From an uncultured Chloroflexia bacterium (lineage in GTDB: Bacteria; Chloroflexota; Limnocylindria; Limnocylindrales; CSP1-4): DNA of 64,000 nt. The notes under the pieces are model-generated. The model made no database searches. It was not told where the DNA came from and saw only the letters and a program-made list of their open reading frames with translations. The DNA is taken from the NCBI GenBank assembly GCA_963712745.1, contig CAVQJC010000017.1:288001-352000 (forward strand), given 5' to 3'. Each line of letters starts with the position of its first letter. Positions within the stretch are counted from its first letter, which is position 1. Positions 7,136 through 42,864 of this stretch are shown piece by piece. A program made the translations under genes and the position numbers.

Positions 7136-7146
7136 CGTGCGATCGG

Positions 7147-7335: not shown

Positions 7336-7339
7336 TGGA

Positions 7340-9125: not shown

Positions 9126-9160
9126 GCGACCAGCATGCCCCAAGGGGGCAAACTGCGCCG

Positions 9161-9291: not shown

Positions 9292-9326
9292 TGTGGACCC
9301 GCTCACGACCGGTGCAACGTGGCTGG

Positions 9327-25149: not shown

Positions 25150-25857
25150 TCAGCGTGCCTCGCGGTAGCGCTGGGCCGCCTCGGCTCGCTTGCGCACGTC
25201 GAGCTTGTGCAGGATGTTGCTGACGTGCGTTTCCACCGTGCGCGGGCTGATGACCAGGGCGGAGGCGATCTCGCGGTCGGTGAGGCCGTCGGCGAGCATC
25301 CGGAGCACGTCGTTCTCTCGCGGGCTCAGCCCTTCCAGCCCCCCAGTGTTGCCGGTCCGACCCTTGCGTGCCGCTTCGATGAAGTGGCGCATGACACGCG
25401 CGGCGTGCCGGCGCGACATCGCCAGCTGGCCCTTCTGGGTGCCTCGCAGTGCCCGCAGCAGCGCCTCTGGCGCCAGGTCCTTGGTGAGGTAGCCGGCTGC
25501 ACCGCGGGCCAGCGCCTCGATCATGTCGCGCTCGGAGTCAGACACGGTGAGCATGACGATCTTGGTATCGGGCAGACGTGGGGACAGTTCCTCGAGCATC
25601 TGGATGCCGTTCATGCCGGGCAGGTCGATGTCGAGCAGCATCACGTCCGGACGCACGCCGAGGGCCAGTGCGAAGGCGTCTTCGGCGCTGCCGGCCTCAC
25701 CCACGAGCTCCACGTCGGGTGCGTCGATCGCCTGGCGTACGGCCGAGCGAACGAGAGCGTGGTCGTCCACGAGCATCACGCGTAGCGGAGTCGCGGATCC
25801 GGCGGTTTCGGTGCCGAGGCTGGGGGCGCCCGCGGTGCGTGGTTGCTGGACGGTCAT
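25150..25857 (-). CDS. NarL/LuxR-family response regulator
   Basis: REC domain 'LVDDH', 'LLDIDLPGMNG'; HTH 'LSPRE...ETHVSNILHKL'. Confidence 0.95.
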   Translation of the reverse strand: MTVQQPRTAGAPSLGTETAGSATPLRVMLVDDHALVRSAVRQAIDAPDVELVGEAGSAEDAFALALGVRPDVMLLDIDLPGMNGIQMLEELSPRLPDTKIVMLTVSDSERDMIEALARGAAGYLTKDLAPEALLRALRGTQKGQLAMSRRHAARVMRHFIEAARKGRTGNTGGLEGLSPRENDVLRMLADGLTDREIASALVISPRTVETHVSNILHKLDVRKRAEAAQRYREAR

Positions 25858-25864
25858 GGCCCCG

Positions 25865-27580
25865 CTAGGGTTGCATACCTGTGGGCTTGACGTCGGCGGC
25901 GTTCGCCGAACCCTGACCTGAAGCGGTCGTCCCGCCACCTGGGATCGCGTTCGGCAACTCGAGCTGGCCGGGCGGCTCCGCGGCGATCGACTCGGGAGCC
26001 ATGGGCGTGCGCTCGCTCGTCTCCGAAACGCTGCTCACCCCGGCGGTCACCAGCGGCGCGCGGACCTCGATGGTGGTGCCGCCGGAGATCTCCGACCTCA
26101 CCAGCAGGCTGCCGCCGATGAGGCGCGCCCGCTCGCGCATCCCCTGCAGGCCCAGGCCCCTGTCGAAGGCTTCGTGCTCGGCGAAGCCGCGGCCGTTGTC
26201 GGTGACGCTGATGAGCAGCTGGCCGTCGGCTACCTCGGCGGTGATGCGCACGATGGTGGCGTCGGCATGCTTGCGCACATTGTTGAGCGCTTCGCTGATG
26301 ATGCGCAGCAACTCCACCTGCACTCGTGGCGCCAGCGTGGAGGGGATGCCGGTCGAGGCCGTGAACTCCGTACGCAGACCCGAGCGGCTCTCGAAGTCCT
26401 CGACGCTGCGCACCAGCATGTCGGCGAAGGGCACGTCCTCCTCGAGGCTGGAGCGCATCGTGACCAGGGCCTCGCGAGCCTCGATGATGGCAGCGTCGAG
26501 GGCCTGCGTGACCTCGTCCGCCAGGGGCCGGTCTCCATCCGAGAGCGCAGAGCTCAGCCGCTCGAACTTGAGCTTGGCAAACCAGAGATGCTGGGCCAGC
26601 CCGTCGTGGATCTCTCGCGCCAGCCGGGCTCGCTCCTCGAGCGTGGCCCGTTCCGCTTCGTTGACGCGCATGCGATCGAGCGCCGCATACGCCGAGCGCA
26701 ACGACCGCAGGTCACTGCGCTGGTCGGCGAAGGCGCCGGCGAGGAGGATGGTGTAGGCCACCAGACGCATGACGTCGGAGATGGTCACGAGGTTGGTATA
26801 GATGCTGGGCCAGAGTGCGTATTGCACCTCTGCCACCGCCAGGATGACCAGGCCGAGCGCGGTGAAGGCGTCGCTGGTGGGGCCGCCCCGCCCCCACGTC
26901 ATGCGGTAGAGGAAGACGCCCGCGATGAGGCCGGTGACCGTAACGATGACGATGACGAGGGCCAGGCCGGTGAAGCCCGGCAAGAGGGCGAAGTCGCCCG
27001 GCTCGGCCAGCAGCGCAGCCAGGCCCTGAGGCTCGATGAGCGGCGGCAGGTACTCGCGGAAGGGGTAGATCAAGACCGTCGCCGCGGCGATGACGATGAC
27101 CGGCCACAAGACCGTGCGGAAGCGCCGCCGGGCTCCGCCGTAGATGCCCATGATGGCCGCGATGCCGCTGACCATGAAGAGGCCGGACACACTCATGCGT
27201 ACGACTCCCGAGACCCACAGGGGCAACTGCCCGGGGTTAACCAGCGAGAGACCCACCTCGTCGTCCAGGCGGAAGACCATCAGCAGCAGCGTCACGAAGG
27301 TGAAGATGGCCCACAGCGCGAAGGCCGAGGACTGCACGAACGAGGCCAGTCGGCCGGTCTCGCGATAGCGCAGGAAGGAGATGACCGCCAGGCCCGTCAC
27401 GGCCACGAAGGTGAGCGCCGACAGCGCCACGTCGAGCGTGCGGTCCTTCATGACGATGTTCAGGTCCGGGTCGACCTGGGGCAACAGCGTGGCGATGAGC
27501 AGGATGCCGGCCGACGCAAGCAGGACCACGTCGAGCCGGACGGCCCGGCGCCGTTGCTGCCTCGTTCGAGGGGTCCGCAT
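25865..27580 (-). CDS. Membrane sensor histidine kinase (HisKA_3)
   Basis: Multiple TM helices; 'RLAREIHDGLAQ', 'EALNNVRKH', 'DNGRG', 'GLGLQGMRER'. Confidence 0.93.
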   Translation of the reverse strand: MRTPRTRQQRRRAVRLDVVLLASAGILLIATLLPQVDPDLNIVMKDRTLDVALSALTFVAVTGLAVISFLRYRETGRLASFVQSSAFALWAIFTFVTLLLMVFRLDDEVGLSLVNPGQLPLWVSGVVRMSVSGLFMVSGIAAIMGIYGGARRRFRTVLWPVIVIAAATVLIYPFREYLPPLIEPQGLAALLAEPGDFALLPGFTGLALVIVIVTVTGLIAGVFLYRMTWGRGGPTSDAFTALGLVILAVAEVQYALWPSIYTNLVTISDVMRLVAYTILLAGAFADQRSDLRSLRSAYAALDRMRVNEAERATLEERARLAREIHDGLAQHLWFAKLKFERLSSALSDGDRPLADEVTQALDAAIIEAREALVTMRSSLEEDVPFADMLVRSVEDFESRSGLRTEFTASTGIPSTLAPRVQVELLRIISEALNNVRKHADATIVRITAEVADGQLLISVTDNGRGFAEHEAFDRGLGLQGMRERARLIGGSLLVRSEISGGTTIEVRAPLVTAGVSSVSETSERTPMAPESIAAEPPGQLELPNAIPGGGTTASGQGSANAADVKPTGMQP

Positions 27581-27743
27581 GTAGGCGATGATAGTCCCGC
27601 CGAAAGTGTGAGAGCCGGACGCGCCCCAGCGCTGTCCGACTCTCTTCTCGCTCGACTCCGGGCCCCGCCGTGAAGGGCCAAGGGGGCGAGTGCTTTTATT
27701 CGTTTCGGTGCCGCCATGATGAGCCAACGCCTGGGCCGGGTCA

Positions 27744-27816
27744 TCCGTGCACATACGGAACCGGGTACGGAGGCAGGGGTCCGTATCACCACGGAGAGCA
27801 CCCGGAGACCTACGGA
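27744..27816. promoter_or_regulatory. Cluster of YACGGA/TCCGTR boxes (candidate NarL-type regulator sites)
   Basis: TCCGTG 27744, TACGGA 27754, 27766 and 27811, TCCGTA 27780, CACGGA 27790. Confidence 0.4.
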
Positions 27817-27965
27817 GCGTTCGCGCCCCCTCGGTGACGGGACGCACCGCTTGGGCGGGAGGTGTGAGGTCCCGGCCCAGCCACGCGCGGACCCGTCAGT
27901 CCTGGCTGCCGGTCCATGCCGCCTCGGGGGCACGACCCCGCGTGGACCGCTACCGTGTGCGTGTC

Positions 27966-29356: not shown

Positions 29357-29782
29357 ATGCCCAGATCCGGCGAACGTATCGCCAGCCGTGATGCGAGCGG
29401 CGCGCCGAACCATCGCGGCTGGATGCCCGTGGCGGCCCGGCGCCGCTGGATCGAGCCCTTCGTGCTGGCCATGCTCGCGCGCGGCAGCACCTACGGCTAC
29501 GCCATCATCGGGCGACTCGAGGAGATGCATATCAGCGATGGCTCGCTGGACGTCGGCCTGGTCTACCGCACCTTGCGCGACCTGGAGCGTGACGGTCTGG
29601 TCAGCTCCTCCTGGGCGGACGAATCGGCCGGTCCCCGTCGCCGCGCCTACCAGCTCACCGATGCCGGCCTCGAGGCGCTCGATGACTGGGCCGCAGTGAT
29701 GCGGGAGCGGGCGCGACTGATCGGGGAGTTCAATGCCGACTACCTGGAGGTCGTGGCCGCGGCGCGCTCCCGGGGTCGCTAG
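29357..29782 (+). CDS. PadR-family transcriptional regulator
   Basis: 'YGYAII...VYRTLRDLERDG...GPRRRAYQLT'. Confidence 0.92.
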   Translation: MPRSGERIASRDASGAPNHRGWMPVAARRRWIEPFVLAMLARGSTYGYAIIGRLEEMHISDGSLDVGLVYRTLRDLERDGLVSSSWADESAGPRRRAYQLTDAGLEALDDWAAVMRERARLIGEFNADYLEVVAAARSRGR

Positions 29783-30273
29783 ACCGGCTCGGCCATGGCG
29801 TGCTTGAGCCCCCTGGCCAGCTCAGCCTGCTCCTCCTCGGAGAGGTTGAGCGCGAGCACGCGCATGTACTCCTCCTCCTCGGCCAGGTGCACCTTCATCA
29901 ACGCATAGATGCGATACAGCACACGCCGCAGCCCGATGGTGCCGGCCGGTCCAAGCGCGTCAGCCTCGACGGCCTGGAGGAAGACGCCGAGCCGCGAGAT
30001 GAGGCCCCTGAGGTCCTCGTGCTCGCGACGCATCTGCAGCATCGAATGCCGCTTTCGCATGAGCCGATCGAGCTCCGGGTAGAGGCTGGCCTCCACGGCT
30101 TCGATGTGCGGCTCGAGCGTCTCGGTCACGAAGCGGACCAGACTCGCGAGGCCTTCGTCGAAGGCGGCTGGGCGTGGTCGTTGGCCGAGCATGTCGGCCA
30201 GCTCCGGCAGCTGGTCGAGCACCTCCGAGATGCGCTCGTGGTGCTCGTGCCCGACATCGGTGACCGCTGGCAA
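29779..30273 (-). CDS. Hemerythrin-like (HHE) domain protein
   Basis: 'HEHH', 'PHIEAVE', 'REHE', 'VHLAEEE'; TTG start after GGAGG. Confidence 0.85.
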   Translation of the reverse strand: MPAVTDVGHEHHERISEVLDQLPELADMLGQRPRPAAFDEGLASLVRFVTETLEPHIEAVEASLYPELDRLMRKRHSMLQMRREHEDLRGLISRLGVFLQAVEADALGPAGTIGLRRVLYRIYALMKVHLAEEEEYMRVLALNLSEEEQAELARGLKHAMAEPV

Positions 30274-30356
30274 GAGCCCATTCCTCCCGTTGCTGATGTG
30301 AACAACGATACGCGGCCCGACGCCGTGGGTCCACAAGGCTGGCGCCCGCCCCTGAA

Positions 30357-30377
30357 CTATATGCTTCCTACATGTAG
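30357..30377. promoter_or_regulatory. Operator CTATATG-N7-CATGTAG in the divergent hemerythrin promoter
   Basis: Near-perfect AT-rich palindrome overlapping TAGAAT; same geometry as the 39739 site. Confidence 0.6.
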
Positions 30378-30424
30378 AATACTGACAGCGGTCCTGACCG
30401 CGAGCGCGCACCGGGAGGCACAAG

Positions 30425-30928
30425 ATGCAGACGCTGGGCGGTGTCTCGCATGAGCACCACGACCTCCTTTGGCGAGCCGTCGACCGGCTGAGCGACCTGG
30501 CCGAGTGTCTCGATTGCGATTGTCTCGACCGGGCTGAACTCCTGGCCCGGTTGCCACAGTTGCAGGAGATCCACGACAGCTTGACCATGCAGCTGATCCC
30601 GCACATGGAAGCTGTCGAGACTGCGGTGTACCCGACGCTCGAGAGGATCGTGGCCGACCACGGCGTGACCGTCACGATGGCGGACGAGCACGAGCAGATC
30701 CGTCGGCTGGTGGCGGCGTTGGGCTCGTTCATCGACGAACCCGCGGCTCACGCCGATCGATCGGCCATCCTGGTCCTGCGGCGCATCCTGTTGCGCCTGC
30801 ACGCGCTGCTCAAGACACATCTGGCGGAGGAGGAGCTGTACATCCCCATCCTCGAGGACCGCTTGACGCCGGGGCAGGAGGCGGCCCTGGCCAGGGCGCT
30901 CGACCACCTCGCGGCCGAGCGACTGTAG
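30425..30928 (+). CDS. Hemerythrin-like (HHE) domain protein
   Basis: 'HEHH', 'PHMEAVE', 'DEHE', 'THLAEEE'; extra 'ECLDCDC'. Confidence 0.88.
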   Translation: MQTLGGVSHEHHDLLWRAVDRLSDLAECLDCDCLDRAELLARLPQLQEIHDSLTMQLIPHMEAVETAVYPTLERIVADHGVTVTMADEHEQIRRLVAALGSFIDEPAAHADRSAILVLRRILLRLHALLKTHLAEEELYIPILEDRLTPGQEAALARALDHLAAERL

Positions 30929-31018
30929 GAGCAGGCCGAGTCCGTCCTGCTGCCGCCCGCCCCCGACCCTTGGCCCGCCTGTCGCAGCCCTGCCTCGAGC
31001 GACTATGCTCACCAACCC

Positions 31019-31507
31019 ATGGATGCGTCCAGCGAACGAGCGGCCGACGGCGCGGCCTCCATCACCAGCGACCTTGCCTCCGACCACGACGAGACGGGGG
31101 TTCCTGTCCATCGTGGCTGGGCTCCGCGCGGCGGGCGGCACCGCTGGATGGAGCCGTTCGTGCTGGTCCTGCTGGCCGACGGGGGAGCGCACGGCTACGC
31201 CATCACCGCCCAACTCGAGGAGATGGGCATCACCGGAGGGCCCGTGGACATCGGGCAGGTGTACCGCACGCTGCGCGAGCTGGAGGGGGCCGGACAGGTC
31301 ACCTCCTCCTGGTCGGCCACCCCTGTGGGACCGCAGCGACGCGAGTACGAGCTCACCGATGCCGGCTACGCGACCATCGACGCCTGGGCAGCGGTGATGA
31401 AGGAGCGGGCCAGGCTCATCGGCGAGTTCAACGCTCGATACCTCGAATCAGTGGCTGCCCCGCGAAGGCAGGCCCAGCCTCCGACGGGCCGCGAGCCGAC
31501 CGCCTGA
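31019..31507 (+). CDS. PadR-family transcriptional regulator (paralogue of 29357)
   Basis: 'HGYAIT...VYRTLRELE...GPQRREYELT', 'WAAVMKERARLIGEFNA'. Confidence 0.92.
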   Translation: MDASSERAADGAASITSDLASDHDETGVPVHRGWAPRGGRHRWMEPFVLVLLADGGAHGYAITAQLEEMGITGGPVDIGQVYRTLRELEGAGQVTSSWSATPVGPQRREYELTDAGYATIDAWAAVMKERARLIGEFNARYLESVAAPRRQAQPPTGREPTA

Positions 31508-31529
31508 TCGACCTACCCCTGGTCAGCGC

Positions 31530-32024
31530 TCAGAAAGCGGCGATGCCGGCGTGGTCCATGGCCTTGGCCAGTCTGGCGGCCTCAGCTTCGGACTCGCCGT
31601 GCTCGATGATGCCGAGGTACAGCTCCTCTTCGGCGAGGTGTGTCTTCAGGATCGCGTACAGGCGGAAGACGATGCGGCGCAGGGATACGCAGTCACCGGT
31701 GTGGTGGCAGCCATCAGCCATCTTGGGGCGCATGTCCGAGAGGGCGGCCACGAGCTTGCGGATCTCGTCATGCTCGCGCCGCATGGTGGCCATCGAATGG
31801 CGGTTCTGCAGCATCCGCTCCAGCTCTGGGTAGAGGGCTCGCTCGGATGCCTCCATGTGCGGGATCAGCAGTCCCTCGAGGAAGTCGGCGAGCTCCTCGA
31901 CGCGGGGCCGGAGCTCGGCCACCGGAGCTTTGCCGATCATGTCCCCGATCTCGGGCATGGCGTCGATGTGCGCGATGAGCCGATCATGGTGCTCATGTGA
32001 GACTTGGTTGAGCGTCGTGGTCAT
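31530..32024 (-). CDS. Hemerythrin-like (HHE) domain protein
   Basis: 'HEHH', 'PHMEASE', 'REHD', 'THLAEEE'; 'GCHHTGDC'; AGGAGG RBS; co-oriented directly downstream of qmoC-like. Confidence 0.88.
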   Translation of the reverse strand: MTTTLNQVSHEHHDRLIAHIDAMPEIGDMIGKAPVAELRPRVEELADFLEGLLIPHMEASERALYPELERMLQNRHSMATMRREHDEIRKLVAALSDMRPKMADGCHHTGDCVSLRRIVFRLYAILKTHLAEEELYLGIIEHGESEAEAARLAKAMDHAGIAAF

Positions 32025-32075
32025 GTCAGACCTCCTTGCGTAGCTTGGGACCGAAAGGTTGGATGTCTCGACCAC

Positions 32076-33269
32076 TCACACCTCCGCTTCGCTGGCGTTC
32101 GATCGCTCGCGACCAAGAGCTTGGAAGAACAGGGCCAGTGGTCGATAGAACGCATGGGCCAGCTTCATGAATGGGGCCAGCAAGACCAGCTCCATGGCTA
32201 CCGCGACGTGGAACAGGAACACCCAGTAGCCCCAGGCCGGTGCGCTGGGCAGGTACAGAGCCAGTTCCAGGGCGAAACCGGTCACGCCGGTGATCCAGAC
32301 CAGGGCCAGCAGCGTCCAGTCGGCTGCCGTGGAATGCTGGACCGACGGCTCAGCGGCACGGAAGCGTCGCACGATCAGCATCGTCGAGCCGTACACGAGC
32401 ATCAGGCCTGCGACCGTTCCAAGCAGTCGGACGGGATACCAGATGGGCACCGGCGTGCCTGTTTCCTTGATGCCGGCCAGCGCCAGCCCGTAGTCGAGGA
32501 CGGTCGCGGCCAGCAAGCCCAGGAAACCCCACATCGTGGCGCCGTGGAGGAACCAGCGCTGCAGGTACCAGGGTTTGCCGCCCTCGGCCTCGTCCTCATC
32601 ATCACAGTCGCGGCGGTAGCGGCGCTGGCCCAGCGATTCGATGGCCAGCGCCGCCCACATCGCTCGGGCCGCAGCGACCACCGCCGACCGGCCAGCCACG
32701 ATCGAGCGCAGGGTCACGCCTTCGATCCGGCCCAGGGCCCGGGCCATCATGGCGAAGCCGGCGATGCCCGCCGCGAAGACCACGACCATGACCGCGATCC
32801 CCAGATCGTGGATGAGCGCCTCGGGAATGAAGCCGAAGATGTCGAGCGACTCGCTGGACTGCTCGCCTTGTGCGGTGAGCATGAAGAGTGCGAAGAGGGC
32901 AGCCAGGGCGACGGCGATGACGGTCCCGACGATCGGTCGCGTGTACAGCGTGCGAGCCAGGCCGGTGCGGTCGTAGTGGCCGATGGCATAGCGCCGGGCG
33001 GCGGCCATGAACTCACTCGGTTCAGCCTGCGTGGGGCAGGTTTCGGAGCACTCGCCGCAGGCGTAGCAGGTCCACAGCTCCTTGCTGCCGAGGAGCTGGT
33101 CTCGCATACCGACCTGAGCGTAGCGGATGATGCGGCGCGGGAAGTTGGCATCGTCGCTGACGAGAGGGCAGGAAGCGGTACAGGTGCCGCAGCTGAAACA
33201 GGCCGAGACATCGGCGGCGCCGTAACGCTGGACGTCGGTGAGCAGCTCGGTATCGACGAGGGTCGCCAT
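32076..33269 (-). CDS. QmoC-like protein: HdrC-type 2x[4Fe-4S] domain plus a cytochrome b-type (NarI/HdrE-like) membrane domain
   Basis: CFSCGTCTASCP, CYACGECSETCP; TM helices with His ('FLHG', 'LFHV', 'PFMKLAH'). Confidence 0.85.
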   Translation of the reverse strand: MATLVDTELLTDVQRYGAADVSACFSCGTCTASCPLVSDDANFPRRIIRYAQVGMRDQLLGSKELWTCYACGECSETCPTQAEPSEFMAAARRYAIGHYDRTGLARTLYTRPIVGTVIAVALAALFALFMLTAQGEQSSESLDIFGFIPEALIHDLGIAVMVVVFAAGIAGFAMMARALGRIEGVTLRSIVAGRSAVVAAARAMWAALAIESLGQRRYRRDCDDEDEAEGGKPWYLQRWFLHGATMWGFLGLLAATVLDYGLALAGIKETGTPVPIWYPVRLLGTVAGLMLVYGSTMLIVRRFRAAEPSVQHSTAADWTLLALVWITGVTGFALELALYLPSAPAWGYWVFLFHVAVAMELVLLAPFMKLAHAFYRPLALFFQALGRERSNASEAEV

Positions 33270-33514
33270 CAGCTCCCTCCCTCGATCGCTGCATAGCGGA
33301 AGTACCCGTCGCCATCGACAGCACCGACCTCGTGGACCCGCCCGTAGCGGCGCATGCCCATGATCCAGAAGAGGACCTCGTGGCTGGGGCATCCCATGGC
33401 CGCGGCAAGCTCGGGCACCGTGAGCGGTCCACTTCCCAGCAGCTCGAGGATCTGGGCTCGCATGATGGGCTCCTCCCGGATGACCTCGCGGACCTCGCGC
33501 TTCGTGACGTTCAT
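33269..33514 (-). CDS. Small winged-helix protein embedded in the hdr/qmo operon
   Basis: 'ILELLGSGPLTVPELAAAMG...MRRYG'; translationally coupled on both sides. Confidence 0.75.
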   Translation of the reverse strand: MNVTKREVREVIREEPIMRAQILELLGSGPLTVPELAAAMGCPSHEVLFWIMGMRRYGRVHEVGAVDGDGYFRYAAIEGGS

Positions 33515-35253
33515 GCGACCGGGACCTCCAGGAGCTTGTCGATCATGGCGGTGACCTGGGCGTCGGTGTAGCCGAGCAGGTCGATGGCGTTCTCAGGACA
33601 GACCGGCACGCAGCCGCCGCAGCCCTTGCAGCCGCTCTCACTGATGACGGCCACGTTGCGTCCGTCCGTCACCTGCATGGTGATGGCGGCATAGGGGCAG
33701 GCATCGAGGCACACGCCGCAGTCGGTACAGGCCTCGGCAGCCACGACCGCGACCAGCGGGTCGAGCTCGGCGAAGCCCTTCTTGAGGATGGCCGCGCTCT
33801 GTGTCACCGCGGCCAGCCCTGAGGCCACGCTTTCGCTCGAGTTCCGTGGCGCCTGGCAGGCACCGGCGATGAAGACGCCATCGACCACGGTCTCGACCGG
33901 GCGCAACTTGGGGTGGATCTCGTTGAAGAAGCCATCCTTGTCGGTGGGCAGCTTGAGCACGCTGATGAGCTCGTCGTTCTGGCGCGGGACCATGGCCGTG
34001 ACCAGGACCACGAGGTCGACCGGAATGTCCAGCTCGGCCCCAGCGGTGAGCTGGTCATGGACGTTGACGAGCAGGCCGCCGTCATCGCGGCGCGCCACGG
34101 TGGGCGGAGCGTCATCGGCGAACTTGAGGTAGACCGAGCCGCGCTTGCGGGACTCGGTGTACATCGTTTCGTACTTGCCGTACGTGCGCATGTCCCGGTA
34201 GAGGTGGTACTGGCGGATCCGGCTGTCGCGCGAGGACAGCTCGATCGAGGCCGCCACCGTGGCCGCGCAGCAGAAGCGGGAACAGTATTCCCGCGCCCCG
34301 GGCTGGCCGGCTGGCTGACGGCTGCCGACACAGTAGACATAGGCCACGCTGCGCACCGGACGACCGGCGTGCATCACGGCACCGTCGGCTCCGTCGATGA
34401 GCTTCTTGAACTCCGGCAGGGTCATGACACCGTCGATGCCGTAGCCGTACTCCCCGATCTCGGGCGTATAGGTGTCGACACCGGTGGTGACCACGATCGA
34501 GCCGACCTCCACGGTGAGCTGATCGGGGTCGGCACCGCCGATGCGGATACCGACCTGGTAGTTGCCGAAGGTGCCGGCCTTGCTGACCATCTCGGCCTCG
34601 GTGAAGACACGGATGGCGGGGCGTTGCCGGACGGCCTCGATGAGCTCAGCCACCAGGTGGTGTCCATCCTTGCCGTTGGGGTACATGGCCCCGAAGCTCC
34701 CGACCCAGCCGCCCAGCTCGGGCTGACGTTCGACGAGGAACACCCCGAGGCCGATGTCGGCCAGGCCGATGGCCGCGCGCAGTCCGGCCACGCCACCGCC
34801 GATGACCAGCGTGCGCGGCGTGGTCTCGACGACCACGGGCTCCAGGGGCTCGGTCAGGAGCGTTCGGGCGATCCCGGCCCGAACGAGGTGGATGGCCTTG
34901 TCGGTCGTGCCCTGGGCATCGTCGGAGTGGATCCACGAGGCCTGCTCGCGGACGTTCACCTGGGTGTACTCGTAGGGGTTCAGGCCGGCTCGCTTGGCGA
35001 CACCGCGGAAGGTGGTGACATGGAGCTTGGGCGAGCACGAGGCCACGACCAGCCCGTCGAGTCTCTGCTCATCGATATCGCGTTCCATGTCCTGTTGGCC
35101 CGCGTCGGAACAGGCGAACGTCATCTGGCGCGCCACGACCACGCCCGGTTCGGCTTGAGCGGCCGCCACCACCTGGTCGACGTCGACGTAGTCGGAGATG
35201 TTGCCGCCGCAGTGGCAGACGTAGACGCCGATGCGTCGTTGCTCGTCGGTCAT
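33511..35253 (-). CDS. hdrA: Heterodisulfide reductase subunit A-like (QmoB-like) flavo-FeS protein
   Basis: 'VYVCHCGGNI', 'ASCSP', 'NVREQ', GGGVAG, 'CVGSR...YCSRFCC', 'HPKLRPV', C-terminal 2x[4Fe-4S]. Confidence 0.92.
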   Translation of the reverse strand: MTDEQRRIGVYVCHCGGNISDYVDVDQVVAAAQAEPGVVVARQMTFACSDAGQQDMERDIDEQRLDGLVVASCSPKLHVTTFRGVAKRAGLNPYEYTQVNVREQASWIHSDDAQGTTDKAIHLVRAGIARTLLTEPLEPVVVETTPRTLVIGGGVAGLRAAIGLADIGLGVFLVERQPELGGWVGSFGAMYPNGKDGHHLVAELIEAVRQRPAIRVFTEAEMVSKAGTFGNYQVGIRIGGADPDQLTVEVGSIVVTTGVDTYTPEIGEYGYGIDGVMTLPEFKKLIDGADGAVMHAGRPVRSVAYVYCVGSRQPAGQPGAREYCSRFCCAATVAASIELSSRDSRIRQYHLYRDMRTYGKYETMYTESRKRGSVYLKFADDAPPTVARRDDGGLLVNVHDQLTAGAELDIPVDLVVLVTAMVPRQNDELISVLKLPTDKDGFFNEIHPKLRPVETVVDGVFIAGACQAPRNSSESVASGLAAVTQSAAILKKGFAELDPLVAVVAAEACTDCGVCLDACPYAAITMQVTDGRNVAVISESGCKGCGGCVPVCPENAIDLLGYTDAQVTAMIDKLLEVPVA

Positions 35254-37960
35254 GACGCCACCTCCTCTCGCTCCAGGAAGGCCGCGACTTGGGCCACCGT
35301 CGACCCGGCGTGGAGGATCGAGTCGGCGATGTCCTTGACACCGGATGCGGCGCCGGCCACATAGACGCCGGGGATGTTGGTCTGGCCGGGGTCGGTGTCC
35401 TCGTTGGGCTCCGCTACATAGCGGTACTCGTCGAGCGAGAGGCTGCCCTCGGGGAACAGCGCCGAGGCATCACTGTTGGGCTGGACGCCGACCGCGAGCA
35501 CGACCAGGTCGTACTCGGCCTCGACCAGCGCGCCGCCGTTCTCGATGTCCTCGTAGCGGAGCACGAGGTCACCGTTGTCCGTCTCGGTGATCTTGGCCAC
35601 GCGACCCTTGACGTAGTTCGCACCCATGGCCTTGGCCTGCTCGTAGAACTCGTCGTAGCGCTTGCCGGCCGCGCGCATGTCCATGTAGTGGACCGTCACG
35701 TCGGCGATGGGCAGGGCGCCCATGATCAGCTGGTTCTGCTTGATGGAGTACATGCAGCAGAAGCGCGAGCACAGCGGGTTGCCCACGGTCTCGTCACGTG
35801 AGCCCGTGCACATCACGTAGGCGATGCGCTCGGGCACCTTGCCGTCTCCGGGTCGGAGGATGGTGTTGAACGGCCGCGTCGGTGCGAGCAGCCGGTCCAT
35901 CTGCATGCCGGTGATGACGTTCTTGAAGGTGCCGTAGCCGTACTCCGGCTTGAGGTCCGCGGCGAAGAGCTTGAAGCCGGTGGCCACCACGACGGCTCCG
36001 ACCTCGACCGTGCTGGTCTGGTCCTGGGCGCGCAGGTCGATGCAGTCCTCGACCGGGCAGGCCGCGACACACTCGCCGCACTCCGAGCAGACGCCGCAGT
36101 CGAGACAGAGACCGGCGCCGTAGCGTGCCTCGGCCTCGGACATGGGCAGCTCCACCTCGCTGAAGTCGGCGGGGGCGGGGCTGATGACCTCGCTGGCGGC
36201 CGCTGGCCGTGCCTCTCGGTAGGCCTGCTGACGCGCCAGCACCTCGCCCTTGTCGACCGCGGGCAGACGCAGGTCGAAGCCTTCCAGCGTCCGATCCTGG
36301 ACCCAGCGGTCGATCATGAAGGCGGCTCGCTGGCCCTGGCCGGTGGCGCGGGTGATGTCCGAGGCCCCCGAGACGACGTCGCCGGCGGCGAAGAGCCACG
36401 GCACTGCGGTCTGCAGCGTGCGCTCGTCCGCCTCGATCGCCCCACTTGCGCTGGTCTCGACCCGTTCGGCGAAAGCGGCCGTGTCGGGCGACATGCCGAT
36501 GGCGGTGATGACGACGTCGCAGTCGAGGTCGAAGTCGCTGCCCGGCAGCGGCTGCGGGCGCCGCCGGCCCGAGGCGTCCGGCTGCCCGGGTGCCATCTTC
36601 GTACAGCGCAGCGCACGCACCGCGCCCGGCGCCATCGGAGAGCACCTCCAGTGGTGCCGCGTGGAAGACGAAGCCGACCCCTTCTTTCTCGGTATCGTCG
36701 GCCTCGACGTGGTGTGCGGGCATCTCGTCGCGGCTGCGTCGGTAGACCACCCTGACCTCGCTGGCGCCCAGTCGCCGGGCGGTGCGGGCAGTGTCCATGG
36801 CCACGTTGCCACCGCCGATGACGAGGACCCGGCGACCGCCGAGGTCGACGTCCCCACCGAGCTTCACCGAGCGCAGGAACCCCGTCCCGCTGAGGACGCC
36901 CTCGAGCTCATCGCCGGGCACGCCGAGACGCGTCGAGAGCGGTGTGCCGGTCGCGACCAGGACGACCTCGTAGCCGTCGTCGTGGAGCGCCGAGAGGTCC
37001 TCGACCGCGGCGTCCACCTCGATCTCGACGCCCAGGGCGGTGACGTTGGCGATGTCGCGCTCGACGACGGCGGTGGGCAGCCGGTACTCGGGGATGGCCA
37101 GGCGCAGGAAGCCGCCCGCCTCGGGCGCGGCTTCGAAGATCTTCACGGCGTAGCCCTTGCGCGCCAGCTGCCAGGCGGCCGTCAGGCCGGCCGGTCCCGA
37201 GCCGACGATCGCGACGCGATGTCCATTCGGTTCGGCCACGCTGATGCCGGGTCCGTCGTCGTGGGCGTAGTGCTCGTCGGCGACGAAGCGCTTGAGACGC
37301 CGGATGGGGATGGGGCCCTCGAGTTCGGCCCGCGAGCAGTCGACTTCGCAGGGCGCGTAGCAGGCACGTCCGAGCGTGCCGACCAGCGGTGTGGCCTCGA
37401 GCACGAGTTGGAAGGCCTTCTCGTACTCGCCGCTCCGGACGAGCGAGACGTAGCCGTGAGCCTGGATGCCGGCAGGGCAGGTGAAGGAACAGGGGGACGA
37501 GCCGGCCCGCTCGATGACCGCCTTCTTGGGCACGGCCTGCGGGAAGGCGATGTAGGCGGCGTGGCGCGCCACCAGTGTCGGCGTTGAACTGATCGGGCAC
37601 CGAGACCGTGCAGGCCGTCTCGCACTTCTGGCAGCCGGTGCAGGCGGCTTCGTCGACGAACCGTGCCTTCTGCTTGATGGTGGCACCGAAGTGACCGTCG
37701 GCCAGACGTTCGATGCCGTCGACCTCGGTGTAGGTCATGGTCGTGACGTTGGGGTGGTGGATCGAGGCCGCCATCTTCGGCGTGGAGATGCAGCTGGCGC
37801 AGTCAAGGGTCGGGAAGACCTTGCTCAGCAGGATCATCTTGCCGCCCACGCTGGCTTCCTTCTCCACCAGCAGCACGCGGTAGCCCATGTCTCCCAGCTT
37901 GAGCGCGGATTCCATCCCGCCGATGCCGGCGCCGACGACGAGGACGTCGTAGTCGGTCAC
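35250..37960 (-). CDS. hdrA: Large HdrA (QmoA/HdrL-like) with inserted ferredoxin and GltD-like NAD(P)H-binding module; +1 frameshifts near 37576 and 36623
   Basis: 'VVGAGIGG...KVFPTLDCASCI', CTGCQKC, 'PCSFTCPAG...LGRACYAPCE', GSGPAG, 'GGGNVAMD...YRRS', 'CTGSRD...CSRFCC', spread across three ORFs. Confidence 0.85.
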
Positions 37961-38406
37961 GACACCACCTCCCGCGGAGTCCATCGCGGCCAGCGCCTGG
38001 CTGAACTGCTGGACATGCCTGGTGAAGGGTTCGGCGCAGACCGAGCAGATGGCGGCCATCCGCAGCCGGGAGGGACTCGTGGCCGCCCGCTGTCAGCATC
38101 TCCTGGGCGCGCGCCACGATCCGCGAGGCGCGCTTGGAACAATCGGGCAGGTAGGCGCACTCGTCGCCATCCGAGGCGATGAAGACGCCATCGAAGCCTT
38201 CTTCGATGGCGTGGCTGATCCAGCTTGGGCGGATGCCGCTGGTGCAGGGCAGGCTGATGACCATGACGCCCGGGGAGTAGGACATGTGTGAGCTCCCGGC
38301 CAGGTCGATGCCCGGGTCGGAGATGTTGTTGGTCGAGAACACGAGGATGCGCGGGACGCCCGTGTCGGTCAGCCTCTCTGGGCTTCTCCGGTGCGAGGGT
38401 GCTCAT
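37957..38406 (-). CDS. mvhD: MvhD/FlpD-like iron-sulfur subunit (atypical); +1 frameshifts near 38380, 38073 and possibly 37975
   Basis: 'RILVFSTNNISDPGIDLAG', 'LPCTSG', 'GFDGVFI..DGDECAY', 'RLRMAAICSVCAEPF'. Confidence 0.75.
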   Translation of the reverse strand: MSTLAPEKPREADRHGRPAHPRVLDQQHLRPGHRPGRELTHVLLPGRHGHQPALHQRHPPKLDQPRHRRRLRWRLHRLGWRRVRLPARLFQARLADRGARPGDADSGRPRVPPGCGWPPSARSAPNPSPGMSSSSARRWPRWTPREVVS

Positions 38407-38449
38407 CGTGGCCTGCCTTTCCTGCCGGTGAGCGACGTGTGGCGGGGCG

Positions 38450-38725
38450 CTACTTCTGGCGCACCACGAAGGTCCGCTCGTAGCCCTCAGCCGGAAGCGT
38501 GCCCAGGTAGGTGTGGCCCATCTTGGCCGACCAGGCACTGACATCGGTCTTGGTGGCCGGGTCGGTCGACCAGAGCTCGATGGTCTCGCCGACCGCGATG
38601 GAGGGCATGGTCTTCTTGGCCTCGAGAAGAGGGCCCGGGCAGGCGCTGCCGCGGGCATCGACGACCTTGGCGGCCGTGATCTCGCCGAGCTCGCTATCGC
38701 TGAGTGGGGTCGTGCTGGTGGTCAT
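38450..38725 (-). CDS. tusA: TusA/SirA-family sulfur carrier
   Basis: 'VDARGSACPGPLL' CPxP motif. Confidence 0.92.
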   Translation of the reverse strand: MTTSTTPLSDSELGEITAAKVVDARGSACPGPLLEAKKTMPSIAVGETIELWSTDPATKTDVSAWSAKMGHTYLGTLPAEGYERTFVVRQK

Positions 38726-38882
38726 GGGAGCCGTCTCCTGTTGCTTGATCCGGAACGCTTGGCCCGGGCGGATGCCCGGCACGCTGTGGCCGGTGGTGGG
38801 CCTGGTCGGTGTACTCGTGATCGATGGGCCGTACGCGAACTCCTCAGTTGATGTGCAACACGTCGATGGATGTCGATCGGAC

Positions 38883-39290
38883 CTAGATGAACAGGATCTG
38901 GCCGTCGTCGGCAGCGGCCAGGAAGGCCGCGATGCCACCTGCCTCATCGACGAGCGGGTCGAGCGCTGCGGCGTCAAGTCCCAGGGTTGCCAGGGACCCG
39001 GCGCAGGCGCGGATGGAGACCTCACCCAGTTCCTTGGCCTGGCGGAACGTCTCGAGCCAGGGGATCTCGCCGACGTGCTCGACCGGCTCGTTCCAGCGTG
39101 GCCGGGATGCGTCATAGGCCAGGCCGTGTTCGTTGCCGATGCGGTCGGCCCGGAACGCGTCGAGGGCCCAGTACATCAGCAGGATGTTCACTGACATGCC
39201 CATGGCGGCAGCGCCGGCGGCGATGGTGGCTGCGGCGTGGAGCTTGTCGTCCGTGCCGGAGAAGAGGACGACCGAAAGCTTGTCGCTCAT
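38883..39290 (-). CDS. DsrE/DsrF/DrsE-like sulfurtransferase
   Basis: 'VLFSGTDDK', 'AAAMG', 'WAL', 'IRACAGS', 'GIAAF', ends 'LFI'. Confidence 0.85.
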   Translation of the reverse strand: MSDKLSVVLFSGTDDKLHAAATIAAGAAAMGMSVNILLMYWALDAFRADRIGNEHGLAYDASRPRWNEPVEHVGEIPWLETFRQAKELGEVSIRACAGSLATLGLDAAALDPLVDEAGGIAAFLAAADDGQILFI

Positions 39291-39661
39291 GAGTGTTCTC
39301 GCTTGCTGCTGGTGACGACTTCTGGCCGCGACGCGCTGGCGGCAGCAGCGAGGTCTCCCATGCGCGACAGCCGTCGCACCAGCACCTCCCGCATCAGCCC
39401 ACAAGCCGCGAGGATCTGGGGGTCGGCCACCATGTAGCGGTGGTTACGGCCGTCGCGGACCGATTCGACGAGGCCGGCGCGCCGCATGGCCCCGAGGTGT
39501 TGCGAAGTAGCCGCCTGGCCTAGACCGAGCTCGTCGGCGAGCTCGTTGACCTCGTGAGGGCGCTCGCCCAGCAGGTGAAGGATGCGAAGTCGATGCCTGC
39601 TCGCGAGCGACCGCAGCAACGACGCCTGCAGGTCCTCGATGTCGGCCATCGGGCTTGTCAC
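39287..39661 (-). CDS. ArsR/SmtB-family transcriptional regulator
   Basis: 'LASRHRLRILHLL', 'SQHLGAMRRAGLV', 'AACGLMR'; GTG after AAGGAGG. Confidence 0.92.
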   Translation of the reverse strand: MTSPMADIEDLQASLLRSLASRHRLRILHLLGERPHEVNELADELGLGQAATSQHLGAMRRAGLVESVRDGRNHRYMVADPQILAACGLMREVLVRRLSRMGDLAAAASASRPEVVTSSKREHS

Positions 39662-39738: not shown

Positions 39739-39761
39739 AATATATGTTTAGACCATATATT
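39739..39761. promoter_or_regulatory. Perfect palindromic operator AATATATG-N7-CATATATT between arsR and pntAA
   Basis: 8-bp perfect inverted repeat, AT-rich in ~70% GC DNA. Confidence 0.75.
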
Positions 39762-39920
39762 AGCCATGAGCCGTTGGTCACCATCGGTGGAGCCATGCGG
39801 CTCCGTTGTCGGGCTGCCCGGGCCGAAGCTCGGCAATTCGCATTACACTTGCGCCCACCGGCGCCCGGCATTCCCGCCGTCGCGCGCCAGCTCATCATTT
39901 CTGACGATCGGGGTTCCTGG

Positions 39921-41069
39921 ATGAGGATTGCCACCGTTAAGGAGACCGCGCCTAATGAACGGCGGGTCGCCCTCGTGCCTGAGGCCATCGGCAAACTGAC
40001 TGCCGCTGGGCACGAGGTTCTGGTACAGGCCGGCGCCGGAGAGGGCGCGTCGATCCCGGACACGGACTTCTCCGCGGCCGGGGCCAAGGTCGTGGCAGAG
40101 GACGCGCTCTACGCGCAGGCCGACGTGGTCCTGCGCGTGCAGAAGCCCACGCCCGAGGAGATCGGCAAGCTGCGTAAGGGGCAGGTCGTCCTGGGCCTGC
40201 TGCAGCCGCTCATCGACCCGCAGAACTCGCAGGCGCTGGCCAACGCCGGCGTCACCGCCATCAGCCTCGATACCTTGCCGCGGACGCTCTCACGCGCGCA
40301 GACGATGGATGCGCTGTCGTCCCAGGCCAACGTCGGCGGCTACAAGGCCGTGATCATGGCCGCGGATGCCTACGGTCGCTACTTCCCGCTGCTGACCACG
40401 GCTGCCGGCACGGCCAAGCCGGCCAACGTGCTCATCCTGGGCATCGGTGTGGCCGGTCTGCAGGCCATCGCCACGGCCAAGCGCCTGGGCGCGGTGGTGA
40501 AGGCATACGACGTGCGCTCGGAGACGAGGGAGCAGGCCCGATCGCTCGGCGCCCAGTTCCTCACCCTCGAGTCGGTGGCCGACGCCACGGGCGAGGGCGG
40601 CTACGCCCGTGAGCTGACCGAAGACGAGAAGGCCGCGCAGCAGGCCGAGCTCAACCAGCACATCAGTTCGATGGACGTGGTCATCACCACGGCCCAGGTC
40701 CCCGGCCGCCGACCGCCGTTGCTGGTCACCGCCGAGGCGGTTCGTAATATGAAGGCGGGTTCGGTCATCGTGGACATGGCCGCCAGCGCGCTCGGCGGCA
40801 ACGTCGAGCTCTCCGTTCCGGACGACACCATCGTGACCGACAACGGCGTGACCATCATCGCGCCGACCAACCTGCCAGCCACCATGCCCGGCGGCGCGAG
40901 CGGCTTCTACGCCCGCAACATCAGCGCCCTGCTGACGCACTTCATCAAGGATGGGGAGATGACGTTCGACTTCGAGGACGAGATCACCGAAGGCACGGTC
41001 ATCACGCACGACGGCAAGGTCGTGCATGAGACCACGGCCAAGTTGCTTTCCGAAGGCGGTGCCGCATGA
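39921..41069 (+). CDS. pntAA: NAD(P) transhydrogenase subunit alpha part 1
   Basis: 'KETAPNERRVALVP', 'RAQTMDALSSQAN', 'TAAGT', 'GEGGYA'. Confidence 0.96.
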   Translation: MRIATVKETAPNERRVALVPEAIGKLTAAGHEVLVQAGAGEGASIPDTDFSAAGAKVVAEDALYAQADVVLRVQKPTPEEIGKLRKGQVVLGLLQPLIDPQNSQALANAGVTAISLDTLPRTLSRAQTMDALSSQANVGGYKAVIMAADAYGRYFPLLTTAAGTAKPANVLILGIGVAGLQAIATAKRLGAVVKAYDVRSETREQARSLGAQFLTLESVADATGEGGYARELTEDEKAAQQAELNQHISSMDVVITTAQVPGRRPPLLVTAEAVRNMKAGSVIVDMAASALGGNVELSVPDDTIVTDNGVTIIAPTNLPATMPGGASGFYARNISALLTHFIKDGEMTFDFEDEITEGTVITHDGKVVHETTAKLLSEGGAA

Positions 41070-41386
41070 GTGGTGAGATCAGCCTTCTTGGCTCGCTGGT
41101 CATCTTCATCCTGGCCGTCCTGGTCGGCTTCGAGGTCATCAGCAAGGTCCCCGCGACCCTGCACACCCCGCTCATGTCCGGTGCCAACTCCATCCACGGC
41201 ATCGTGCTCATCGGCGGCATGATCATCGCCGCCGAGGCAGACGAAATCCTGGGCTACACGCTAGCCCTCGTGGCCGTCCTCTTCGGCGCCATGAACGTGG
41301 TCGGTGGCTATGTCGTGACCGACCGCATGCTGCAGATGTTCAGGAAGAAGCCCACCGCCCCCAAGGCCGACGGTAAGGAGGCCTAG
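41066..41386 (+). CDS. pntAB: NAD(P) transhydrogenase subunit alpha part 2
   Basis: 'VPATLHTPLMSGANSIHG', 'NVVGGYVVTDRML'. Confidence 0.96.
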   Translation: MSGEISLLGSLVIFILAVLVGFEVISKVPATLHTPLMSGANSIHGIVLIGGMIIAAEADEILGYTLALVAVLFGAMNVVGGYVVTDRMLQMFRKKPTAPKADGKEA

Positions 41387-41388
41387 GG

Positions 41389-42864
41389 GTGGATCAGGCA
41401 ACACTCAGCACGCTCTTCATCCTCATCGGGGCCCTGGCCGCAGGCAGCTTCGTCATCGGCTTGCACTTCATGAACAGCCCCGCCACAGCGCGCAACGGCA
41501 ACCTCATCTCGGCGGGCGGCATGACCGTGGCCGTGGCGGCCACCTTCGCCTACCTGTTGCTGCGCGACTGCCATCACCAGAGCTGCGCCGTCGGCGGCCT
41601 CTCCACCGAGGGGCTGGTCATCATCATCGGCGGCTTCATGATCGGTGGCGCCGCCGGCCTGTACCTGGCCCTGCGCGTGGCCATGACGGCCATGCCCCAG
41701 CTTGTCTCGCTGTTCAACGCGGTCGGCGGCGGCGCAGCTGCCCTGGTCGCGATCTTCGACTATCTCAAGATCGTCGGCACGCCCGACGAGTCGATCTCGA
41801 CCACGATCTTCGTCATCCTGGGCGTGCTCATCGGCTCCATCACCTTCACCGGCTCGCTCATCGCCTCGGGCAAGCTGCAGGGCCTGATCAGGGGTCAGCC
41901 CATCGCGGTGCCCGGCGGCGTGTACACCACCATGGCGCTCGGACTGGTGGCGCTGGTGACCACCATCTTGCTCATCCTCGGCGCCGGCGAGTCGCCCATC
42001 CTGGAGCTCGGCAGCGAGGTCAAGACGGTCCTGCTGCTGGTCCTGCTGGGTGCGTCGCTGACCTTCGGCGTGACCATGGTGCTGCCCATCGGCGGCGCCG
42101 ACATGCCGGTCGTCATCAGCCTCCTCAACTCCTTCACCGGTACAGCCGCGGCCATGTCAGGCTTCGTGCTCGAGTCCCCGCTGCTCATCATCGCCGGCGC
42201 CCTCGTGGGTGCGGCCGGCGGCATCCTCACCAAGCTCATGGCCGACGCCATGAACCGTTCGCTGCTGAACATCATGGTCGGCGGCTTCGGTGGCGCTGAG
42301 GGTACCCAGGCCGATCCTGCCGCGTCCGGTGGCACGGTCCGCGAGGTCGGCGTGGACGACGCCGCCATCCAGCTGGCCTATGCCGAGAACGTCATCATCG
42401 TGCCCGGCTATGGCCTGGCGGTGGCGCAGGCGCAGCACGCCTGCCGCGAGCTGGGCGACGTGCTCGAGGAGCGCGGCGTCAACGTGGTCTATGCCATCCA
42501 CCCGGTGGCCGGCCGCATGCCGGGTCACATGAATGTGCTGCTGGCGGAGGCCAACGTGCCCTACCCGCAGCTCAAGGAGATGGAGGACGTCAACCCCGAG
42601 TTCAACCGCTGCGACGTGGCCCTGGTCATCGGTGCCAACGACGTGACCAACCCGATCGCCCGAACCGATCCGTCCTCGCCCATCTACGGCATGCCCATCC
42701 TCGACGTCGACCATGCCAAGTCCATCATCGTCATCAAGCGTTCGATGGGCCGCGGCTACGCCGGCATCGACAACAGCCTCTACACCGATCCCAAGACGGG
42801 CATGCTCTTCAGCGATGCCAAGGCCGGCCTGGAGAACCTCATCGCGGCGGTCAAGGAGCTGTAA
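41389..42864 (+). CDS. pntB: NAD(P) transhydrogenase subunit beta
   Basis: 'MPQLV', 'GGADMPVVISLLNS', 'PGYG', 'HPVAGRMPGHMNVLLAEA'. Confidence 0.97.
   Translation: MDQATLSTLFILIGALAAGSFVIGLHFMNSPATARNGNLISAGGMTVAVAATFAYLLLRDCHHQSCAVGGLSTEGLVIIIGGFMIGGAAGLYLALRVAMTAMPQLVSLFNAVGGGAAALVAIFDYLKIVGTPDESISTTIFVILGVLIGSITFTGSLIASGKLQGLIRGQPIAVPGGVYTTMALGLVALVTTILLILGAGESPILELGSEVKTVLLLVLLGASLTFGVTMVLPIGGADMPVVISLLNSFTGTAAAMSGFVLESPLLIIAGALVGAAGGILTKLMADAMNRSLLNIMVGGFGGAEGTQADPAASGGTVREVGVDDAAIQLAYAENVIIVPGYGLAVAQAQHACRELGDVLEERGVNVVYAIHPVAGRMPGHMNVLLAEANVPYPQLKEMEDVNPEFNRCDVALVIGANDVTNPIARTDPSSPIYGMPILDVDHAKSIIVIKRSMGRGYAGIDNSLYTDPKTGMLFSDAKAGLENLIAAVKEL

Follow-up and report, generated by a model that had tools for sequence, protein, structure and literature searches.

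The operon and its encoded proteins

The 64,000-nucleotide window analysed here (G000:C17:288001-352000) belongs to an uncultured Chloroflexota genome (G000; 4.22 Mb in 20 contigs, 68% G+C, completeness 84.55%, contamination 5.03%) and carries a nine-gene operon of HdrA-type redox proteins and sulfur carriers on the minus strand at positions 31530–39649. The list of open reading frames together with Pfam and NCBIfam models revealed the gene order arsR-dsrE-tusA-mvhD-hdrA(large)-hdrA2-wHTH-qmoC-hemerythrin, where wHTH stands for a winged-helix protein. The models were applied to the window proteins and to the intact orthologues of a genus mate, G005, which together with G002 and G022 makes up the genus mates carrying an orthologous cluster with the GltD insert described below. 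Stop and start codons overlap at arsR/dsrE, large hdrA/hdrA2, hdrA2/wHTH and wHTH/qmoC, which fits a single operon, and the hemerythrin frame begins immediately past qmoC. The preliminary description of this DNA had listed the same run of genes; all nine were present and co-oriented, but the frames of mvhD and the large hdrA are interrupted in the window.

The large HdrA (35250–37960; interrupted in the assembly) starts with a QmoA-like flavin adenine dinucleotide (FAD) domain, and its HdrA halves lie on either side of a GltD/NfnB-like module for reduced nicotinamide adenine dinucleotide phosphate (NADPH). The module consists of a Fer4_20 domain and two Rossmann folds, whose motifs 'GGGNVA' and VVYRRSRDEMPA form a stretch of the NADPH type. 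In the intact large HdrA of G005, the GltD models span residues 149–646 and the HdrA model spans residues 616–895, in addition to the N-terminal FAD motif. The module sits between the two Cys motifs of the inserted ferredoxin domain, and an mvhD gene, though an atypical one, lies directly upstream; both features are those of the HdrL or type III HdrA proteins. The adjoining QmoB-like HdrA2 (33511–35253; 580 amino acids, intact) comprises an N-terminal four-Cys CHC domain, a FAD domain, a CSRFCC motif and a C-terminal 2×[4Fe-4S] ferredoxin with two Fer4 domains. These domain calls bear out the earlier reading of a first HdrA that begins at the FAD domain and carries an NADPH-type GltD-like insert, and of a second one with an N-terminal CHC domain and a C-terminal ferredoxin. 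The best solved relative of HdrA2 was methanogen HdrA (5odc_A, 386 bits), compared to 104.9 bits for sHdrA (6tjr_A); no Qmo structure was reached by this sequence search among solved structures.

The QmoC-like membrane subunit (32076–33269) joins an HdrC-like 2×[4Fe-4S] part to a NarI-like cytochrome b, so the fusion previously proposed as the membrane arm could be confirmed. It aligned with positions 2–360 of the 360 positions of the NCBIfam qmoC model NF038018 at 198.7 bits, under the cut-off of 300, compared to 478.8 and 457.7 bits for the aprBA-linked QmoC proteins of two Desulfobacterota clusters from metagenome-assembled genomes (MAGs). The subunit has eight invariant Cys residues, six hydrophobic segments and His aligned with canonical QmoC. 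Judged from these residues, the eight Cys would serve two [4Fe-4S] clusters, and the membrane part is predicted to be of the di-heme-b type, which can link the complex to the quinone pool. Another quinone-linked HdrL arrangement was observed in a Desulfobacterales MAG (L147; G437:C2, 5006–11143), where a 775-amino-acid QmoC-like protein (NF038018 189.7 bits, under the cut-off) directly precedes a 1136-amino-acid type III HdrA and a canonical mvhD; it is without tusA.

Between hdrA2 and qmoC lies an 81-amino-acid winged-helix protein (33269–33514) with weak helix-turn-helix (HTH) Pfam matches, all under the cut-off. Homologues occupied the same position in G005, G002, G022, the paralog clusters L104–L106 described below, and the Thermoleophilia and Bacteroidales loci. 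The structure search found no solved relative for this protein, and it has no conserved Cys. Directly after qmoC, a hemerythrin-like (HHE) protein is encoded (31530–32075; PF01814, 52.8 bits).

At the other end of the operon, TusA (38450–38725; 91 amino acids; PF01206, 62.0 bits) carries the motif DARGSACPGP. Residues D23, A24, R25, G26, C29, P30, G31 and P32 were invariant in 16 sequences, which includes the Cys-Pro-x-Pro motif of the family. The preceding gene encodes a 135-amino-acid sulfur-carrier-like protein of the DsrE2B type (38883–39290; PF13686 (DsrE_2), 45.1 bits) with a single Cys in 'RACAGS'. It matched 2qs7_A over its full length (E 1.1e-18, residues 3–135 on 8–144) with the Cys aligned, and 2QS7 carries the name DsrE2B (PMC4175335). 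The first gene of the operon encodes an ArsR-family regulator (39287–39649; NF033788, 73.7 bits against a cut-off of 55; HTH_5, 51.4 bits). A persulfide-sensing role had been suggested for this regulator, which is plausible for the family but did not find support here: the window ArsR has one Cys ('ILAAC') and scored 38.9 bits with the BigR model, whose cut-off is 155. The orthologues of G022, G002 and L108 have a further Cys ahead of the HTH, which the window protein and that of G005 lack.

The MvhD of this operon (37957–38406; interrupted in the assembly) reached the gathering cut-off of the FlpD model PF02662 (22.3 bits), with 98.7 bits for the intact G005 orthologue and 69.4 bits for the middle piece in the window. 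It was aligned with the canonical MvhD of another cluster of the same genome (contig C6), with those of other loci and with 5ODC. The canonical Cys set consists of a CxxC after strand 1 and of the Cys in MCSG, GGC and GDC, and TusA-linked MvhD proteins deviate from it. The GGC Cys is gone, as is the CxxC that follows the first strand; the MCSG- and GDC-equivalent Cys are retained, and one Cys six residues on and a CxxC in 'ICSVC', where the canonical protein has 'ISAAE', are gained. In G005 numbering, C54, C83, C89, C120 and C123 were invariant in 22 sequences from three phyla. In a flavodoxin-like topology, the loop after strand 4 presumably lies at the same sheet edge as the canonical ligand loops. 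On the simplest view, the atypical MvhD binds an Fe-S cluster with migrated ligands, and a bolder alternative is that it holds a reactive cysteine or dithiol.

Frame breaks in mvhD and the large hdrA

Three-frame translation showed the coding path of mvhD and the large hdrA to be broken into five pieces that alternate in frame, all shifts having the same direction. Extra single bases were located at about 38369/70, 38076, 37979, 37577 and 36627. Those at ~38369/70 and 38076 interrupt mvhD, those at 37577 and ~36627 interrupt the large hdrA, and the base at 37979 falsely joins the C-terminus of MvhD to the start of HdrA. When the large hdrA was compared with the intact 933-amino-acid G005 orthologue by tblastn, it matched in three frames (residues 1–128, 129–446 and 445–896) with 84–88% identity. 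DNA alignment demonstrated that G005, G002 and G022 are all without the extra base at ~38364, 38074, 37977 and 37575. Near 36627, in a G run, the extra base is missing in G005 and G002 and is common to the window and G022.

Logan contigs from four metagenome runs of four studies were further aligned to window positions 35200–38500; contig joints and loose ends from other organisms at 90% likeness were excluded from the evidence. Near-identical contig pieces (0–3 mismatches per ~200 bases) were one base shorter at 37577 (run X1), 37979 (X1, X2), 38076 (X1, X2) and 38369/38370 (X3/X1). At these four sites, the bases missing from the metagenome contigs are precisely the frame-restoring positions. 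Upon in silico removal of the four bases, an MvhD frame separate from hdrA was obtained that agrees with G005 at 118 of 141 aligned residues, and the mvhD/hdrA overlap became GTGA, comparable to ATGA in G005. When the fifth base was removed as well, 764 of the 896 aligned residues of the large HdrA were the same as in G005.

At least four of the five frame breaks are assembly errors, because near-identical independent contigs as well as G005, G002 and G022 are without those bases. Real pseudogene status is possible solely through the site at 36627. Two genes of the operon therefore call for caution, as they resemble pseudogenes owing to insertion errors in the assembly. Further observations agree with indel errors that are locally clustered. 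The flanking genes across ~17 kb are unsplit in G000. Another hdrA of this genome, on contig C6, is split into three frames, which indicates that indel errors are not limited to the window. In G022 (L015; G022:C1:136000-153000, 6560–9740), the large hdrA has nine single-base insertions of its own, with hdrA2 and qmoC intact. The large hdrA is thus error-prone in two assemblies, and mis-polishing of a multi-copy conserved family may be the cause.

Two translational explanations were considered and rejected. For programmed +1 frameshifting, the shifts all run in one direction, but the sites have no common motif and the near-identical contigs are simply without the bases. Selenocysteine in the large HdrA had been considered from seven loci with one TGA inside; this TGA proved to be the natural stop, read through into the longer C-terminus of G005.

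Conservation of the gene order and relation to known systems

The order (dsrE)-tusA-mvhD-hdrA(GltD)-hdrA2-wHTH-qmoC was kept in all three orthologue-bearing genus mates. For a survey within the phylum, 401 Chloroflexota genomes were drawn evenly, of which 61 had a match at E ≤ 1e-100. Thirty loci were taken from this draw, and 17 of them, from 17 other genomes, had a large HdrA with 58–81% identity. The atypical MvhD was encoded upstream and HdrA2 downstream at every one of the 17 loci, and tusA lay directly upstream of mvhD at 16; at the one other locus, the sequence stops 189 bases before mvhD. In contrast, TusA was found at none of 12 distant type III HdrA loci (≤45% identity, frames of 1120–1500 amino acids), which carry canonical MvhD or HdrC instead. 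A pattern scan of genome contigs gave 80 loci, about a dozen of which were full-length type III HdrA; plain GltD genes dominated the scan, as a generic Rossmann motif was one of its two patterns.

The same order was found beyond the phylum, in a Thermoleophilia MAG (L020; 63% identity) and in Bacteroidales MAGs, where L035 holds the full set from dsrE to qmoC, L021 runs from tusA through mvhD and hdrA to the contig end, and L022 begins at hdrA. Deltaproteobacterial hdrA pairs (L038, L043) are without tusA and fall elsewhere in the HdrA tree. The co-occurrence of tusA and dsrE with this hdrA pair, on which the preliminary description had staked its sulfur assignment, thus holds in three phyla; its absence would have counted against that assignment. 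A second tusA lies upstream of the first in the Thermoleophilia locus L020 (8498–9567) and in Chloroflexota L119 and L121; in L020 it comes with a second DsrE-type gene, and the sulfur-carrier set varies by lineage.

Three further genus mates carry a paralog cluster without the GltD insert (L104 on G001:C9, L105 on G021:C1 and L106 on G013:C19). Its order is a dsrE-type gene, tusA, the atypical mvhD (fused to the QmoA-like protein in G001), a 731–747-amino-acid frame holding HdrA2, wHTH and qmoC. The insert-less MvhD retains a different pair of canonical Cys and has the same ICSVC. This paralog cluster shows that TusA, the atypical MvhD, two HdrA proteins and QmoC form the core, to which the NADPH module is an optional addition. 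When 16 loci were compared, a DsrE2B-type gene was present at 12, a second DsrE-type gene at eight, a hemerythrin gene beside the cluster at 11 and a PadR gene at nine; the hemerythrin and PadR neighbours occur mainly in Limnocylindria-type genomes. No rhodanese, YeeE, HdrB or other enzyme was common to these 16 loci.

Profile searches of G000, which is 84.55% complete, gave no match to aprA, dsrA or sat, and only ferredoxin-like matches of ≤24.5 bits, below the cut-off, to aprB. Since the genome is incomplete, the aprA and dsrA searches were repeated on five cluster-bearing relatives 94–97% complete, and neither gene exceeded the cut-off in any of the five. CCG (HdrB) domains in G000 are confined to contig C6, and no hdrB/CCG gene was present in any TusA-linked locus compared. 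The window was accordingly described correctly as lacking hdrB, aprAB and dsrAB, and the Apr-less character extends to the genome and its relatives, but hdrBC does occur on contig C6. There, a canonical [NiFe] mvhADG-mvhD-hdrA-hdrBC cluster with the normal MvhD Cys set lies at ~166,500–177,000.

The phylogenetic position of the two HdrA proteins was assessed with a quick maximum likelihood (ML) tree with 34 HdrA-like rows and 383 alignment columns. In it, canonical QmoA and QmoB formed their own clade (SH-like approximate likelihood ratio test, SH-aLRT, 99), and the TusA-linked large HdrA (eight rows, support 99) and HdrA2 (seven rows, support 98) formed separate clades among HdrA proper. Approximately unbiased (AU) tests, for which the groups were named after seeing the tree, rejected joint clades with canonical QmoA or QmoB at p ~0.0004 each. 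Membership in canonical Qmo was rejected on these tests, on the NF038018 score of the QmoC-like subunit and on the lack of aprBA. The layout itself is that of QmoABC, with two HdrA-like subunits and an HdrC/HdrE-type membrane subunit in one operon.

Canonical (type I) QmoABC has two HdrA-like flavoproteins, a quinone-contacting HdrC/cytochrome-b fusion and an MvhD-like element, as does the window operon. The window operon differs from it, besides the points just given, in a separate and rebuilt MvhD encoded before the A-like subunit, in the GltD/NADPH module of that subunit, and in the inclusion of tusA and dsrE2B. Further counterparts are the 'type II' Qmo proteins of Neukirchen et al. 2023, which were described as closer to hdrA than to bacterial qmoAB, as present also in organisms without Dsr or Apr, and as having a function stated as unknown (PMC10504309). 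In its account of these proteins, supplementary figures aside, that study draws no link to TusA/DsrE and mentions neither a GltD insert nor an atypical MvhD; its set may overlap with that of the window.

The GltD/NfnB insert is likewise on record. Proteins named HdrL ('heterodisulfide reductase/glutamate synthase fusion'), each with an mvhD, were described in Desulfobacterium autotrophicum (PMC2702500), the insert in the inserted-ferredoxin domain was described as that of type III HdrA (PMC12054007), and ANME-1 archaea carry it in HdrA9-11 (PMC9012536). As far as these accounts go, such proteins are soluble, have HdrBC, Mvh, Fdh or Dsr partners and a canonical MvhD, whereas the window clade has a QmoC anchor, TusA/DsrE2B and the atypical MvhD. 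The GxGxxA and YRR motifs of the window clade are of the NADPH type, and those of archaeal type III HdrA have been read as NAD-type in this literature. The sHdr sulfur-oxidising systems are accompanied by TusA/DsrE sets (PMC11094781) and resemble the window operon in having TusA and a DsrE2B-type protein beside an HdrA-containing complex (PMC4175335). Compared with sHdr as described in these sources, the window cluster is without HdrB/HdrC pairs, its HdrA2 is not sHdrA-like, and it features instead a QmoC in the membrane and an NADPH module.

The claim of a distinct complex thus held in part: both HdrA proteins fall outside canonical QmoA/QmoB, but the GltD/NfnB insert and the Apr-less type II Qmo were already known. 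Neither outcome by which the preliminary description would have been refuted, aprAB elsewhere together with both HdrA proteins in canonical clades or a lack of tusA/dsrE beside this hdrA set in other genomes, came about. The window system is best regarded as a variant of the type II Qmo/HdrL kinds, and what appears new is the fixed link to TusA/DsrE2B and an MvhD with a moved Cys pattern. No description of a tusA-mvhD-hdrA-qmoC cluster or of an ICSVC-type MvhD could be found in open-access full texts, supplements aside. NfnAB/SudAB likewise contains a GltD-like FAD/NADPH subunit with two [4Fe-4S] clusters, and the Pyrococcus enzyme was reportedly first described as an NADPH:polysulfide 'sulfide dehydrogenase'. 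The window module differs in being inserted inside HdrA, without an NfnA-type partner.

Proposed function and genomic setting

The operon may be intact in nature and encode a membrane-anchored redox complex of the type II Qmo/HdrL kind that has sulfur carriers of its own and acts on the sulfane sulfur bound to them; for this reading as a whole, the arguments for and against are about evenly balanced. NADPH would enter or leave at the GltD module of the large HdrA, and quinone would couple at QmoC. The third redox partner would be sulfane sulfur, as persulfide or thiosulfonate, on TusA/DsrE2B. It would be handed over at the atypical MvhD, for which docking on HdrA is expected by analogy with the MvhD of Mvh-Hdr. 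A probable task of the hemerythrin is to protect or repair the numerous Fe-S centres of the complex. Flavin-based bifurcation and an action on TusA/DsrE-bound persulfide, both put forward in the preliminary description, are inferences. Approximate standard potentials are −320 mV for NADPH, −270 mV for S0/HS− and −75 mV for menaquinone, by which the reductive and the oxidative direction are both feasible. Of the two, we favour, at modest odds, a reduction to sulfide of the sulfane sulfur on the carriers that depends on NADPH and is coupled to quinone. The reverse, in which sulfane oxidation would deliver electrons to both menaquinone and NADP+, is also allowed energetically.

Several observations weigh against an intact, sulfur-dependent complex. 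Most serious is the lack of any subunit whose S-S chemistry is known: no catalytic site for S-S or persulfide chemistry was found among the cluster subunits, and HdrB/CCG domains are not in the cluster. In the biochemical tests reported, DsrE2B was unreactive with every sulfur compound tried (PMC4175335), and the synteny among related MAGs is partly shared ancestry. The contigs that support the repaired frames are shallow (depth 2.4–3.7), and in run X3 the gap at 38369 was present in just 3.67 of 7.14 depth. The site at ~36627 lies outside contig coverage and G022 has the extra G there too, so the large hdrA could be truly broken in this lineage. It has to be asked on these grounds whether this strain carries mvhD and the large hdrA as true pseudogenes, the system being a relic in decay here. 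The five frame breaks, the one without contig evidence being common to the closest relative G022 (93% identity on HdrA2), and the nine additional single-base insertions in G022 would be in line with such decay. It is nevertheless improbable, as four of the five extra bases are missing from near-identical contigs of independent runs and from G022, the frame pieces are still 84–88% identical to G005 with no break beyond the five bases, and the split C6 hdrA, the 84.55% completeness and the 20 contigs form the pattern of an indel-rich assembly.

The missing sulfur-reactive subunit counts in favour of a sulfur-independent NADPH:menaquinone oxidoreductase, possibly bifurcating to ferredoxin by analogy with Fix/EtfABCX or Nfn, for which TusA/DsrE2B would serve only in maturation or regulation or be unrelated. 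All redox modules required for such an enzyme are present, the inertness of DsrE2B in vitro suits it, and transhydrogenase genes beside the cluster at five loci (window, G005, G022, G021 and G013) point to an NADPH economy. We consider it unlikely, given that tusA immediately precedes the atypical mvhD at 16 of 17 loci of the phylum and in two other phyla, that TusA is absent from all 12 distant type III loci with canonical MvhD or HdrC, and that the insert-less paralog cluster, having no NADPH module, retains tusA and a dsrE-type gene. A sulfur-oxidising role could also arise in trans, if the complex worked with the C6 HdrBC or another CCG protein as an sHdr-like system fed by TusA/DsrE; the CCG-domain proteins on C6 and the TusA/DsrE sets of sHdr systems would make this conceivable. 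It is highly improbable, because the C6 hdrBC genes belong to a canonical mvhADG-hdrA cluster having its own canonical MvhD, HdrA2 is much nearer to methanogen HdrA than to sHdrA, and the TusA-linked loci examined have no hdrB. The overall likeness of the three-module layout would suit a canonical QmoABC serving an adenosine 5'-phosphosulfate (APS) reductase encoded elsewhere, but the aprA/aprB searches, the QmoC scores and the AU tests leave next to no probability for it.

Returning to an operon that acts on carrier-bound sulfur, the atypical MvhD offers a candidate for the missing chemistry. Its five Cys could comprise an Fe-S site and an adjacent reactive Cys or dithiol in the ICSVC loop, which would take sulfane sulfur from TusA/DsrE2B and carry out the S-S chemistry of HdrB. 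The complex would then represent an HdrB-less class of sulfur-dependent bifurcating enzymes in Chloroflexota, Actinomycetota and Bacteroidota, a proposal that is distinctly unlikely as it stands. Such an enzyme would either use NADPH and quinol to respire the sulfur bound to the carriers or draw on sulfane sulfur to form NADPH and menaquinol directly, with no need for reverse electron flow.

Apr-less type II Qmo and GltD-inserted HdrA have been recorded without an assigned function, and this clade offers a concrete and testable partner, because in three phyla the operon has TusA and DsrE2B as fixed members, beside an MvhD with rebuilt Cys. If the sulfur link is true, there would be cytoplasmic, quinone- and NADPH-coupled turnover of sulfane sulfur in abundant sediment and soil lineages lacking Dsr, Apr and sHdr, which gene-based surveys now score as without dissimilatory sulfur metabolism.

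The genes around the operon were also inspected. Divergent from arsR, pntAA-pntAB-pntB (39744–42864, plus strand) encode a proton-translocating NAD(P) transhydrogenase (AlaDh_PNT 205.4, PNTB_4TM 114.2 and PNTB 577.3 bits). These genes adjoin the cluster in the window, in G005 (L013, 1737–4800) and in G022, and in two of the paralog clusters without the insert, those of G021 (L105, 4380–7472) and G013 (L106, 13449–16560), they come directly after qmoC and share its orientation. The adjacency survives local rearrangement, which hints at a link of these neighbouring genes to the NADPH pool of the complex.

At the qmoC end of the cluster, three hemerythrin-domain genes occur within 29779–32075 (29779–30732, minus strand; 30425–30928, plus strand; and the operon gene at 31530–32075, minus strand), together with a PadR regulator gene (31019–31507, plus strand). 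A histidine kinase (HisKA_3/HATPase_c) and a LuxR-type response regulator are encoded a few kb off the cluster (25150–27895, minus strand), and their homologues recur near the cluster in G001, G021, G013, G049 and the Thermoleophilia locus.

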